Shown in pieces: positions 27,212 through 62,860 of a stretch of DNA of 64,000 nucleotides. A model generated the notes under the pieces. The model ran no database searches, was not told the origin of the DNA, and saw nothing but the letters and a program-made list of their open reading frames with translations. Position numbers and translations under genes: made by a program. This stretch comes from Eledone cirrhosa (Eukaryota): contig OZ024740.1 in the NCBI GenBank assembly GCA_964016885.1, positions 125,798,001 through 125,862,000 on the forward strand, read 5' to 3'. Numbering within the stretch: position 1 is the stretch's first letter; every line of letters begins with the position of its first letter.

Positions 27212-27866
27212 ATATGTATATATATATATATATATATATATAAATATATATATATGTATATATATATATGTATATATATATATAAATATATGTATATATG
27301 TATGTATATAATTATGTATATATATGTATGTATATATATATATATATGTATATATATGTATATATATATATGTATATATATATGTATATATATGTATATA
27401 TATATATACATATATATATATACATATATATATCTATATACATATATATATATACATATATATATAGATATATACATATATATATAGATATATAGATATA
27501 TATACATATATATATATATATACATATACATATATATATATATATATATATATATATATATATATACACATATAAATATATATATATATATATATATATG
27601 TATATATGTATATATATATATGTATATATAAATATGTATATATAAATATGTATATATATATATATATATATATATATGTATATATATATATATGTATATA
27701 TATATATATGTATATATGTATATATATATATATGTATATATATATATGTATATATATATATATGTATATATATATATGTATATATATATATGTATATATA
27801 TATATATGTATATATATATATGTATATATATATATGTATATATATATATATATATGTATATATATA
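27212..27866. repeat. (TA)n microsatellite
   Basis: Directly visible. Confidence 0.97.
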
Positions 27867-30800
27867 TAAGTTGAAAAAAATGAAAACGAAATTTCATTTC
27901 TCACTCTTAGTATGGCACTTACTTAAACGTAAGTATGTATGTATACGTACATACACATATGTATACAGACGTACAGTAGCACGCATATATATATACACAC
28001 ATATACACACATATACATATATATATATATATATATATATATATATATATATACATATACACACATACACACATGCATACAGGTACACATACATATATGC
28101 ACGCATCAGTTTAGCCGACGTTTATTATAACGCCGGCCGCTTTGTTCGTTTGTTTGTCAACAAAGCGAACAGCCTGAATTTATGCCATACGGTGTTAAGG
28201 CAACCACGTCACCTTTTTTTTTTTTTTTTTTTTTTTTTGTTCAACACTGACACAGGAACGATGTACTAGTTTCAAGCTTGTTAGCTATCATCAGCACCGT
28301 TTACCCATCTGCCAGATAGTTGAACGTTCGAAAGTATATACTTTCCTTATGAAAATTAACGGCTGAGCAGCCTAATTTGCATATTGAGTGAGTTAAATCG
28401 GTCAGGCATACCGAAAACGATAAGTTGAAAAAAATGAAAACGAAATTTCATTTCTCACTCTTAGTATGGCACTTACTTAAACGTGAGTATGTATGTATAC
28501 GTACATACACATATGTATACAGACGTAGAGTAGCACGCATATATATATACATATATATATATATATATATATATATATATATATATACACATATGCATAC
28601 AGGTACACATACATATATGAACGCATCAGTTTAGCCGACGTTTATTATAACGCCGGCCGCTTTGTTCGTTTGTTTGTCAACAAAGCGAACAGCCTGAATC
28701 TATGCCATACGGTGTTAAGGCAACCACGTCACCTTTTTGTTCAACACTGACACAGGAACGATGTACTAGTTTCAAGCTTGTTAGCTATCATCAGCACCGT
28801 TTACCCATCTGCCAGATAGTTGAACGTTCGAAAGTATATACTTTCCTTATGAAAATTAACGGCTGAGCAGCCTAATTTGCATATTGAGTGAGTTAAATCG
28901 GTCAGGCATACCGAAAACGATAAGTTGAAAAAAATGAAAACGAAATTTCATTTCTCACTCTTAGTATGGCACTTACTTAAACGTAAGTATGTATGTATAC
29001 GTACATACACATATGTATACAGACGTACAGTAGCACGCATATATATATACACACATATACACACATATACATATATATATATATATATATATATATATAT
29101 ATATATACATATACACACATACACACATGCATACAGGTACACATACATATATGCACGCATCAGTTTAGCCGACGTTTATTATAACGCCGGCCGCTTTGTT
29201 CGTTTGTTTGTCAACAAAGCGAACAGCCTGAATTTATGCCATACGGTGTTAAGGCAACCACGTCACCTTTTTTTTTTTTTTTGTTCAACACTGACACAGG
29301 AACGATGTACTAGTTTCAAGCTTGTTAGCTATCATCAGCACCGTTTACCCATCTGCCAGATAGTTGAACGTTCGAAAGTATATACTTTCCTTATGAAAAT
29401 TAACGGCTGAGCAGCCTAATTTGCATATTGAGTGAGTTAAATCGGTCAGGCATACCGAAAACGATAAGTTGAAAAAAATGAAAACGAAATTTCATTTCTC
29501 ACTCTTAGTATGGCACTTACTTAAACGTGAGTATGTATGTATACGTACATACACATATGTATACAGACGTAGAGTAGCACGCATATATATATACATATAT
29601 ATATATATATATATATATATATATATATATATATACACATATGCATACAGGTACACATACATATATGAACGCATCAGTTTAGCCGACGTTTATTATAACG
29701 CCGGCCGCTTTGTTCGTTTGTTTGTCAACAAAGCGAACAGCCTGAATCTATGCCATACGGTGTTAAGGCAACCACGTCACCTTTTTGTTCAACACTGACA
29801 CAGGAACGATGTACTAGTTTCAAGCTTGTTAGCTATCATCAGCACCGTTTACCCATCTGCCAGATAGTTGAACGTTCGAAAGTATATACTTTCCTTATGA
29901 AAATTAACGGCTGAGCAGCCTAATTTGCATATTGAGTGAGTTAAATCGGTCAGGCATACCGAAAACGATAAGTTGAAAAAAATGAAAACGAAATTTCATT
30001 TCTCACTCTTAGTATGGCACTTACTTAAACGTAAGTATGTATGTATACGTACATACACATATGTATACAGACGTACAGTAGCACGCATATATATATACAC
30101 ACATATACACACATATACATATATATATATATATATATATATATATATATATATATATACATATACACACATACACACATGCATACAGGTACACATACAT
30201 ATATGCACGCATCAGTTTAGCCGACGTTTATTATAACGCCGGCCGCTTTGTTCGTTTGTTTGTCAACAAAGCGAACAGCCTGAATTTATGCCATACGGTG
30301 TTAAGGCAACCACGTCACCTTTTTTTTTTTTTTTTGTTTTTTTTTTTTTTTTTTTTTTTTTTTGTTCAACACTGACACAGGAACGATGTACTAGTTTCAA
30401 GCTTGTTAGCTATCATCAGCACCGTTTACCCATCTGCCAGATAGTTGAACGTTCGAAAGTATATACTTTCCTTATGAAAATTAACGGCTGAGCAGCCTAA
30501 TTTGCATATTGAGTGAGTTAAATCGGTCAGGCATACCGAAAACGATAAGTTGAAAAAAATGAAAACGAAATTTCATTTCTCACTCTTAGTATGGCACTTA
30601 CTTAAACGTGAGTATGTATGTATACGTACATACACATATGTATACAGACGTAGAGTAGCACGCATATATATATACATATATATATATATATATATATATA
30701 TATATATATATACACATATGCATACAGGTACACATACATATATGAACGCATCAGTTTAGCCGACGTTTATTATAACGCCGGCCGCTTTGTTCGTTTGTTT

Positions 30801-60104: not shown

Positions 60105-61262
60105 TATATATATATATATATATATATATATATATATATATATATATATATATATATATATGTATATATATATATATATATATATATATGTATATATATA
60201 TATATATATATATATGTATATATATATATATATATATATATATATGTATATATATATATATATATGTATATATATATATATATATATGTATATATATATA
60301 TGTATATATGTATATATAAATATGTATATGTATATATATATATGTATATATATATATGTATATATATATATGTATATATATGTGTATATATATATATGTA
60401 TATATATGTGTATATATATATATATATTTATATATATATATATATGTATATATGTATATATGTATGTATATATATATGTATATATATATATGTATATATA
60501 TATGTATATATGTATGTATATATATATGTATATATATATATGTATATATATATGTATATATATATGTATATATATATATGTATATATATACGTATATATA
60601 TATATGTATATATATATGTATATATATATATGTATATATATATGTATATAAATATATATACATATATATATATATATTTACATACATATATACACACACA
60701 TATATATATATATATATACATATATATATACACATATATAAATATATATATACATATATATATATATATATACATATATGTATATATATATATATATATA
60801 TATATATATATATATATATATATATATACATATATATATATATATATATATATTTATACATATATATATATATACATATATATATATATATATATATATA
60901 TATATATATATATATATATATATATACACATATATATATATATAAACATATATATATATATATATATATATATATATATATATATATACACATATATATA
61001 TATATAAACATATATATATATATATATATATATATATATATATATATATGTATATATATATATATATATATATATGTATATATATATATATGTATATATA
61101 TATATATATATATATATGTATATATATATATATATATATATGTATATATATATATATATATATATATATGTATATATATATATATATATATATATATGTA
61201 TATATATATATATATATATATATATGTATATATATATATATATATATATATATATATATATA
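60105..61262. repeat. (TA)n microsatellite with TG/CA polarity switches
   Basis: Directly visible. Confidence 0.97.
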
Positions 61263-62860
61263 TATTACAATTTAAAAAAATATGATTAACATTAATGTGT
61301 TATTTTTTTTGCAAAATGACAATAATTTTTTTTTTACCCAGAATGAAATACCTTAATTCAAGTACATATAGTCCGCCTGTATCGATCTAGAAAATATTAA
61401 ATATTAAATCTATACTTACAGACGTAAAATGGCAACTGCCTGGTGCCTAGACAAGTTTAAATTTCAAAATTCCTACCTTTTCAGCAGATCGGGCGGAACT
61501 TCAAAACATAAACCTGTTTCACAAGGGATGGTATACTAATGAAATAATTTATTTATTACGGAACAACTATTTATAAAATAATTATTAGTGAAGTAATCAA
61601 TTTTCTGTGATCTTCGGTAGGCACCCAGAAATTAAAGTCACTTCTCCTAAGATAATAATCTTAAGACTGATCTGTCGCAAGCCTAATACATGTGCTTTTG
61701 CACACGACCTTCTCAGCATTCTGGCTCATATCCATGGCGCTAGAAATAACAGCCGTAAATATGTGATTATGAATTCAGCTCTACCGGAGGAGCAGATTAA
61801 TTTCAGTTTAGTAGTCAATTACAAATATTAAGCTCTAAGAAAATACTTCTGAGCATTACATTATAATTTAAAAAATATGATTAACACTAATGTGTTTTGT
61901 TTTTTTTGCAAAATGACAATAATTTTTTAGCCAGATAGAAATACCTTAATTCAAGTACATATAGTCCGCCTGTATCGATCTAGAAAATATTAAATATTAA
62001 ATCTATACTTACAGACGTAAAATGGCAACTGCCTGGTGCCTAGACAAGTTTAAATTTCAAAATTCAAACCTTTTCAGCAGATAGGGCGGAACTTCAAAAG
62101 ATAAACCTGTTTCACAAGGGATGGTATACTAATGAAATAATTAATTAATTACGGAACAACTATTTATAAAATAATTATTAGTGAAGTAATCAATTTTCTG
62201 TGATCTTCGGTAGGCACCCAGAAATTAAAGTCACTTCTCCTTGTATTTGACTACTAAACTGAAATTAATCTGCTCCTCCGGTAGAGCTGAATTCATAATC
62301 ACATATTTACGGCTGTTATTTCTTGCGCCATGGATATGAGCCAGAATGCTGAGAAGGTCGTGTGCAAAAGCACATGTATTAGGCTTGCGACAGATCAGTC
62401 TTAAGATTATTATCTTAGGAGAAGTGACTTTAATTTCTGGGTGCCTACCGAAGATCACAGAAAATTGATAACTTCACTAATAATTATTTTATAAATAGTT
62501 GTTCCGTAATTAATTAATTATTTCATTAGTATACCATCCCTTGTGAAACAGGTTTATGTTTTGAAGTTCCGCCCGATCTGCTGAAAAGGTTTGAATTTTG
62601 ACATTTAAACTTGTCTAGGCACCAGGCAGTTGCCATTTTATGTCTGTAAGTATAGATTTAATATTTAATATTTTCTAGATCGATACAGGCGGACTATATG
62701 TACTTGAATTAAGGTATTTCTATCTGGCTAAAAAATGATTGTCATTTTGCAAAAAAAACAACAACACATTAGTGTTAATCATATTTTTTAAAATTGTAAT
62801 GTAATGCTCAGAAGTATTTTCTTAGAGCTTAATATTTGTAATTGACTACTAAACTGAAAT
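61263..62860. mobile_element. Retrozyme family D (593-bp monomer; ~1.65 monomers, then ~1 inverted)
   Basis: Inversion at ~62241; HHRs at 61442-61625 and 62035-62218 (minus) and 62440-62623 (plus). Confidence 0.87.
62440..62623 (+). ncRNA. Large type I hammerhead, CCGAAGA core, extended stems II and III
   Basis: ggtgccta-CCGAAGA-tcacag..~80 nt..cttgt-GAAA-caggttta..~50 nt..taaacttg-TC-taggcacc. Confidence 0.8.

Follow-up and report, generated by a model that had tools for sequence, protein, structure and literature searches.

Retrozymes of metazoans that lack long terminal repeats (LTRs; non-LTR retrozymes) are described as dispersed, non-coding tandem repeats of less than 50% GC, which carry a type I hammerhead ribozyme in each unit and co-exist with Penelope-like elements (PLEs) (PMC7229834; 10.64898/2026.07.22.740005). 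Their mobilisation by PLEs was proposed in 2020 (Cervera and de la Pena, PMC7229834), and a 2026 preprint supported the link by homology to the pseudo-LTRs (pLTRs) of PLEs (Li, Clavereau and Pollet, 10.64898/2026.07.22.740005). Endonuclease-bearing (EN+) PLEs, in turn, are described as elements with two fixed ends separated by a tail, with inverted 5'-truncated arms and partial tandems, which insert into AT-rich or (TA)n targets and whose ribozyme is dispensable for insertion (PMC11167929; PMC8557442). The tail, described as unique to PLEs, corresponds to the interval from one of two internal start sites of the reverse transcriptase (RT) to the other; the anole PLE protein, a predicted dimer, cuts and extends both target strands, its RT prefers unprocessed RNA in vitro, and insertion is unaffected by mutation of the hammerhead (Frangieh et al., 2024, PMC11167929). 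Here we analyse a 64,000-nucleotide (nt) stretch of the 3.0-Gb Eledone cirrhosa genome (the window hereafter; 125.80-125.86 Mb of the forward strand of OZ024740.1), in which an earlier note had recognized four families of tandem repeats, A to D, and taken all of them for retrozymes. We consider it probable that A, B and D are non-coding mobile repeats with the two-end signature of Penelope elements, copied in trans by a PLE RT-endonuclease, and that C stands apart from them.

The arrays were delimited by self-comparison and by direct reading of the window sequence, and four non-coding arrays with non-integer copy numbers, each flanked by (TA)n, were indeed found at the coordinates given in the earlier note. 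Array A (27868-35346) comprises ~14.1 copies with an inversion at 31644/31645. Its left arm (27868..31644, minus strand) consists of ~7.1 units, alternately ~500 and ~544 nt long, with a 'long' outer end at monomer position 500, and its right arm (31645..35346, plus strand) of ~7 units with a 'short' outer end at position 444, 56 nt upstream of the long one. The inverted B insertion (56654..57541) contains 1.93 copies of a 465-nt unit, with the short end (398) on the left arm and the long end (465) on the right, and the inverted D insertion (61264..62859) contains 2.65 copies of a 593-595-nt unit, again with the short end (539) on the left and the long end (593) on the right. Array C (58589..60102, plus strand) is built differently, of 2.49 tandem units of 607/608 nt with a single fixed 3' end, no inversion and no hammerhead; a 5'-truncated copy of a C subfamily (55134..55629, minus strand; 0.81 copy, 86% identical to C) has the same fixed 3' end. 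All four families are dispersed genome-wide, with 531 (A), 1,067 (B), 1,600 (C) and 858 (D) first-look candidates, of which 40 per family were scored. The separation of A from B was not borne out, the two forming one homologous clade with 64% identity over 352 nt.

The evidence for PLE copying comes from the ends of the insertions. Our end census took in every complete, distinct insertion in the loci examined, mostly top-scoring copies, and left out chains shorter than 200 nt or truncated at the edge of a locus. In each of the three families the 3' ends gather at two sites (A, 434-449 and 495-500; B, 388-400 and 460-465; D, 526-541 and 588-593), separated by 54-72 nt. The internal inversion noted in the window recurs across the sampled loci, in 26 of 35 A, 21 of 31 B and 19 of 34 D insertions (66 in total). 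Among those whose two ends both coincide with a fixed site, a long arm is combined with a short one in 17/17 cases in A (one of them a segmental duplicate), 16/16 in B and 12/13 in D, that is in 45 of 46 inverted insertions (binomial p = 8e-6, 2e-5 and 2e-3, respectively). Flanks are TA-rich at 165 of 185 3' ends against a background of 17%, and at the 5' side of 30 of 53 single-arm insertions, the 5' junctions often losing the TA tract. Tabulated in this way, the ends are fixed and the flanks TA-rich, and the families are not limited to static blocks in random surroundings. The 5' ends, on the other hand, are scattered as in random truncation: they lie near the predicted ribozyme cut in only 2/61 (A) and 1/52 (B) cases, which is no enrichment, and the insertions read through this cut. 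The long arm is the longer one in 28 of 46 insertions and the inner ends vary; L1-style twin priming and snap-back copying, which were also considered, are unsupported, as either arm may be the longer.

The autonomous PLEs of the window follow the same rule. One of them, of the Hydra type (the P0001 family; 37752..54911, minus strand), forms ~2.7 tandem units of 6387 nt with a long end at 37752 and no hammerhead in the unit. Its RT-GIY-YIG frame (41541..43952, minus strand) encodes 803 aa with Hydra motifs, and the ATG at 43983 is out of frame in the window copy. The repaired 41541-43983 open reading frame (ORF) called for earlier is unnecessary for an assay, because 49 of the 56 scored genomic matches to the P0001 protein already lie in stop-free frames of at least 830 aa. 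Units of this family end at 6387 or 6253 (a tail of 134 nt), a third group of ends lying near 5460-5480 in a microsatellite (loci L154, L157, L159, L161-L163, L167 and L168), and both complete inverted pairs (2/2) combine a long and a short end. A second Hydra-type element, PLE2, has a 3,531-nt unit and is represented by a 5'-truncated, inverted copy at 16381..19220, with the short end on the left and the long end on the right (tail ~78 nt), and by an inverted subfamily copy at 21869..27211; 12 of 13 classifiable pairs among its 18 inverted copies are long plus short. In a Neptune-type PLE family with a hammerhead and a 59-nt tail, represented by a 5'-truncated copy which runs past the window end (63146..64000, plus strand), the same holds for 3 of 4 pairs. 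The remark that A, B and D invert like the neighbouring PLEs therefore applies to the two PLE2 copies and not to the local P0001 array, which is tandem without inversion.

The P0001 and PLE2 proteins share an RW[RK]-type motif, a C-terminal GIY-YIG domain, a CxCx5C linker and CxxC and CxH motifs, a DKT motif being read in P0001 only. In these motifs, the C-terminal endonuclease and the (TA)n insertion both elements resemble Hydra clade PLEs as described in PMC8557442, their placement resting on motifs without a reference tree. They differ in unit length (6.4 and 3.5 kb, usually below 3 kb in the clade) and in the ribozyme: a canonical hammerhead is described as universal in the clade (Craig et al., 2021, PMC8557442), and scans of the full P0001 and PLE2 units for C3G8, U3A8, U3G8 or A6C cores revealed none.

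Since two fixed ends and the pairing of a long with a short arm match the autonomous PLEs, copying of A, B and D by a PLE is likely; such mobilisation, with a ribozyme or without, is well supported by their junction sequences. The argument from junction anatomy, advanced earlier for all four families, is thus stronger than proposed for A, B and D and fails for C. The three families share with EN+ PLEs (PMC11167929; PMC8557442) two fixed 3' ends with a tail, inverted 5'-truncated arms, partial tandems and the AT-rich or (TA)n targets, and differ in that they encode no protein. Their tails of 54-72 nt, and those of 78 and 134 nt in the Hydra-type families, exceed the 30-40 bp described for PLEs (PMC11167929; PMC8557442), and the strict pairing of one long with one short arm is not stated in the passages of these two papers examined. 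If the families behave like the anole PLE (PMC11167929), the two strands of the (TA)n target would each be nicked by the enzyme, and every nick would prime complementary DNA (cDNA) synthesis from one of two internal start sites on an RNA that is either tandem or circular. The one-long-one-short pairing would follow if the enzyme were a dimer that places an active site at each start, and the two cDNAs would then be joined head to head. Both monomeric and multimeric repeating RNAs would be among the templates, and we hold circles and read-through tandem transcripts about equally likely. The hammerhead would be a passenger dispensable for insertion, because D and both Hydra-type PLEs lack one.

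The composition of the arrays bears on the template. Units are more alike within arrays than between them, with a mean number of single-nucleotide polymorphisms (SNPs) of 2.2 vs 4.2 in A, 1.9 vs 10.2 in B, 0.9 vs 7.5 in C and 10 vs 28 in D. SNP-identical arrays make up 7/18 in A, 9/19 in C, 0/13 in B and 0/4 in D, and higher-order periods of two, four and five units were observed in the A array of the window, in locus L172 and in locus L221, respectively. Such a make-up fits circles of monomers and multimers, and fits transcripts of pre-existing arrays as well.

Several observations weigh against PLE copying of A, B and D from repeating RNAs, or limit it. One end lies off the fixed sites in 20 of the 66 inverted insertions, five of these ends being in the internal TA tract of A; one D insertion is short-short, and PLE2 and the Neptune-type family have one long-long case each. 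Most loci were top-scoring, young copies, and the end classes were defined on the same data. Inner ends of long arms coincide with the short start in 6 of 46 cases against 2.8 expected (p = 0.06), which is not significant and so does not support the copying of both cDNAs from one shared RNA. Homogeneous arrays often match other arrays exactly, so that inheritance from a source already homogeneous may account for them instead of synthesis on a circle. Profiles of A-D gave no match beyond the microsatellite to the three autonomous PLE units (P0001, PLE2 and Neptune-type), so that there is no pLTR homology to the units sampled, unlike in Xenopus, where it is reported for 24 of 57 retrozyme families (10.64898/2026.07.22.740005); in a comparison of tails only A-B was significant among 21 pairs. 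Finally, cleavage by the A and B ribozymes is not assured, since only one of nine Xenopus retrozyme dimers cut in vitro (10.64898/2026.07.22.740005).

These ribozymes are complete by sequence and supported by covariation. A structure scan revealed a type I hammerhead in 14/14 A units and 2/2 B arms of the window, for example at 31828..31880 (plus strand; core from 31840, predicted cut after 31870), the other A cores lying at 28294, 28794, 29338, 29842, 30419, 30919 and 31461 on the minus strand and at 32384, 32884, 33428, 33928, 34479 and 34981 on the plus strand. The B hammerheads (56864..56934, minus strand; 57194..57264, plus strand) were also recognized with Rfam, the first as HH9 with E=1.1e-6, under the gathering score. 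On the entire window no Rfam family reached its gathering score (0 matches in gathering mode), and the E-value mode was swamped by (TA)n-driven microRNA matches. In an alignment of 16 variants, whose rows are related, 93.4% of cells of the A/B fold were paired with six compensatory pairs, and none of 500 shuffles had as high a covariation score; the exact core has 23,601 occurrences in the genome and the control none. The short helix III is palindromic, as in axolotl HHR_Amex1 (PMC7229834), and hammerheads of this kind reportedly work best as dimers (PMC7229834; PMC4209133). The A and B hammerheads are predicted to self-cleave, with cuts after monomer positions 158 and 166, respectively. Being small, non-coding, tandem and dispersed, with GC below 50% and a hammerhead in each unit, A and B are by sequence new members of the animal non-LTR retrozymes (PMC7229834; 10.64898/2026.07.22.740005) and on their own ordinary ones. 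Their units of 465-544 nt are larger than the 170-400-nt circles of PMC7229834 and within the 51-972 bp of 10.64898/2026.07.22.740005, and the tails, inverted arms and (TA)n targeting present in A and B are not described for retrozymes in the passages of these two sources examined.

An octamer, ATGCAAAT, is conserved in A and B at monomer positions 36-47 upstream of the hammerhead (e.g., at 31752 and 57009 of the window). We take it to be reminiscent of the snRNA-type promoter of newt satellite 2 and regard it as a candidate promoter. Newt satellite 2 (PMC2220036), with such a promoter, resembles A and B as a hammerhead tandem repeat, the promoter of A and B being putative. A 495/496-letter contig wrapping round the 465-nt B unit was found in two sequencing runs of unspecified kind that bear other organism codes, X4 and X5, at depths of 9.7 and 4.5 and 96-98% identity; low-level DNA would give the same wrapped contig, so these runs were not counted as evidence of circular RNA. 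They contained no contig of C.

One type I hammerhead per monomer, as claimed for all four families, is thus present in A and B and absent from C and D, in which the structure scan found none. No core was detected in C monomers from 30 loci by a strict CUGANGA..GAAA scan, and Rfam returned nothing for C and no ribozyme for D; the C2 subfamily has CTGATGA without GAAA. For D the sole product of the strict scan, at 2 of 30 loci, was a CTGAAGA-TCACA-GAAA variant whose spacer measures 5 nt. A core-like string CUGC(U/G)GA-stem-GAAA, with the A6C change, is kept in at least three D subfamilies (414 matches vs 0 for the control), and its CUGCUGA..GAAA form is probably what had been taken for a hammerhead. 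In the window it lies at 61456..61490 (minus strand) within a conserved 21-bp hairpin, and stem I does not form: its three core-proximal pairs are paired in 0 of 18 sequences, the hairpin over the same bases being 96.6% paired and showing one compensatory pair (6 of 500 shuffles scored as high). Because stem I is unpaired in 18/18 sequences and the alternative hairpin sequesters the core-like string, D fails as a retrozyme; neither C nor D has a functional-looking hammerhead, and judged by sequence both lie outside the non-LTR retrozymes, from which they differ in lacking the defining ribozyme. With A and B forming one clade and C a different anatomy, the count of four retrozymes is wrong. Divergent D subfamilies, D2 and D3 (~70%; with C2: L080:390-1254, L201:362-890, L268 and L271), were also noticed, the two-end anatomy being seen in D2.

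Family C is one-ended. All 20 single-arm copies end at position 607, and none of the 21 census insertions is a head-to-head inversion. In a genome-order sample, drawn from 2,977 motif matches (1 for the control), 0 of 26 insertions had an inverted arm, 24/24 visible fixed ends enter (TA)n, and most copies are shorter than one unit. A divergent relative, C2 (68-80% identical; 3,910 candidates), keeps this anatomy, with no clear and one ambiguous (L307) inverted arm in 20 loci. Lacking a PLE-type tail and an inverted arm, C probably represents a target-primed retroposon of its own, either served by another helper or copied in a one-site mode. No PLE or LINE (long interspersed nuclear element) ORF runs into the 3' end of the 26 insertions, and clustering of 1,482 TA-flanks gave, among the clusters listed, no non-C cluster resembling the end of C. 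A terminal likeness of C to the long end of P0001 was rejected, being lost in C2. A frameshifted RTE-like LINE with an apurinic endonuclease (APE), an RT and C2H2 fingers, and 3' fragments of it ending in (TA)n, lie at 7907-11620, 15960-16370, 36023-36512 and 58018-58330; this LINE is a possible helper for C, no 3' homology to C being seen.

As to the helper of the other families, the PLEs nearby had been put forward on the ground of co-location. The P0001 query gave 123,285 first-look candidate sites, ~2.6 per 64 kb, and the PLE2 query 50,204, ~1 per 64 kb. At this density an adjoining PLE is expected, so co-location is no evidence, and the three PLE units share no sequence with A-D beyond the microsatellite; common (TA)n targets likely explain the pile-up of elements here. 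Chimeric junctions were considered as a clue: in L075 the PLE2 tail adjoins D at its 5' end, and in L235 it adjoins C in the same way. They were rejected, since the L235 sequence is an entire mini-PLE2 with 16 nt clipped off and 5' junctions often lack the TA tract. No helper is named by sequence comparison for any of the families A-D. D and the Neptune-type family both have a 59-nt tail and are of similar age, which we record as a lead only.

The original proposal, in which each of the four families would be a hammerhead retrozyme that is cleaved into monomers and circularised, with the Hydra-type PLE nearby rolling the circles, appears very improbable. The complete hammerheads of A and B and the SNP-identical arrays of A and C agree with it, and the core-like string kept in D gains some weight from a natural A6C hammerhead which cleaves with Mn2+, the ion it prefers (PMC7151607). 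Yet C has no core, in D the hairpin replaces stem I, and arrays with higher-order periods or mixed units, such as those of B, are impossible from one monomer circle; moreover, the neighbouring PLE has no sequence link to the families, and its tail is 134 nt against 54-72. A more serious competitor, which we hold quite possible though not the probable case, is that A, B and D are what internal deletion has left of the pLTRs of an unsampled autonomous PLE, moved from read-through tandem transcripts with no circular stage. The pLTR relationship of Xenopus retrozymes (10.64898/2026.07.22.740005) and the preference of PLE RT for unprocessed RNA in vitro (PMC11167929) speak for it, as do the hammerhead-less 6.4-kb and 3.5-kb PLE units, which are also tandem, and the comparison covers three PLE units with many families beyond. 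No parent, however, was found in the three full units or in the loci examined, and arms of up to 14 kb (~30 units) with locus-specific periods are simply explained by a repeating template. This origin and the trans-copied repeats we favour differ only in origin and in the form of the template.

One-ended rolling-circle transposition also yields one fixed end, a variable other end and seamless tandem junctions, and Helitron termini are 5'-TC and 3'-CTRR. C could accordingly be a non-autonomous, Helitron-like DNA transposon, a reading to which its fixed end, variable other end and tandem copies, and the lack of a ribozyme and a PLE tail, lend themselves. We regard it as unlikely, since neither terminus occurs at the fixed end or the unit junction of C in either orientation, and the majority of copies fall short of a full unit and sit in (TA)n, as in truncated target-primed reverse transcription. 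That the arrays are static satellites or products of microsatellite recombination is hardly credible: A does have an internal (TA)n tract with seven ends in it, and some arrays reach ~30 units, but the end census contradicts this, the copies, which number in the hundreds to thousands, being dispersed, short and 5'-truncated, with ends that are fixed and flanks that are unrelated. The ends in the internal tract of A, like those of the P0001 family near 5460-5480, may reflect internal TA priming or recombination. Beyond the trans-copied repeats which we favour for A, B and D, we entertain only tentatively, and rather doubt, a ribozyme-independent class of small repeating-RNA parasites, in which a dimeric PLE, beginning one cDNA at each of the two fixed sites of D, would roll around D circles formed without a hammerhead, and C would be a second, one-ended class with monomer circles rolled by another RT; if true, retrozymes would be no more than those PLE-rolled circular RNAs that carry a ribozyme and are easy to detect.

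Literature searches, whose coverage ended short of subscription papers, Repbase/Dfam and paper supplements, listed no paper on families of this kind. Distinctive are the ribozyme-less D obeying the PLE end rule, the hammerhead-less Hydra-type PLEs and the one-ended class C, which touch on the open questions of the movement of animal retrozymes and of the role that the hammerhead has in PLEs. The window offers a natural comparison of one insertion signature with the ribozyme (A, B) and without it (D, two Hydra-type PLEs), with C as a one-ended outgroup. Ribozyme-based searches would miss elements of the C and D type, and the mapped start sites, together with naturally intact PLE copies, make helper-template pairing directly testable in vitro.

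Among the remaining elements of the window no tRNA genes were found. The PLE2-subfamily copy is interrupted by an APE-RT LINE (~23615-26680) with a long open frame, part of a 1109-codon frame at 23315-26644. PLE2 also occurs as inverted mini-insertions of ~190-200 bp (L197, L191, L066, L334 and others), whose arms both start near unit positions 3390-3410 at a hairpin and have one long and one short end; these may represent a non-autonomous mini-family or a strong RT stop. Where the third P0001 unit is truncated at its 5' end it is fused to a 190-bp piece (54911-55100) of a separate repeat family, also seen in L077 and L179, with ATTTGCAT. Another TA-flanked non-coding repeat (55780-56587), whose end recurs in other loci, lies between the C-subfamily copy and B, a small inverted PLE fragment encoding GIY-YIG occupies 1717-2350, and a 200-N assembly gap lies within a (TA)n tract at 12191-12390. 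Three further hammerhead-like motifs (970-1030, 2190-2240 and 20490-20545) are situated near the 3' ends of other TA-flanked elements, and a near-perfect 140-bp palindrome at 20074-20213 is centred on a CTGAAGA..GAAA core, its end recurring 13 times among the TA flanks.

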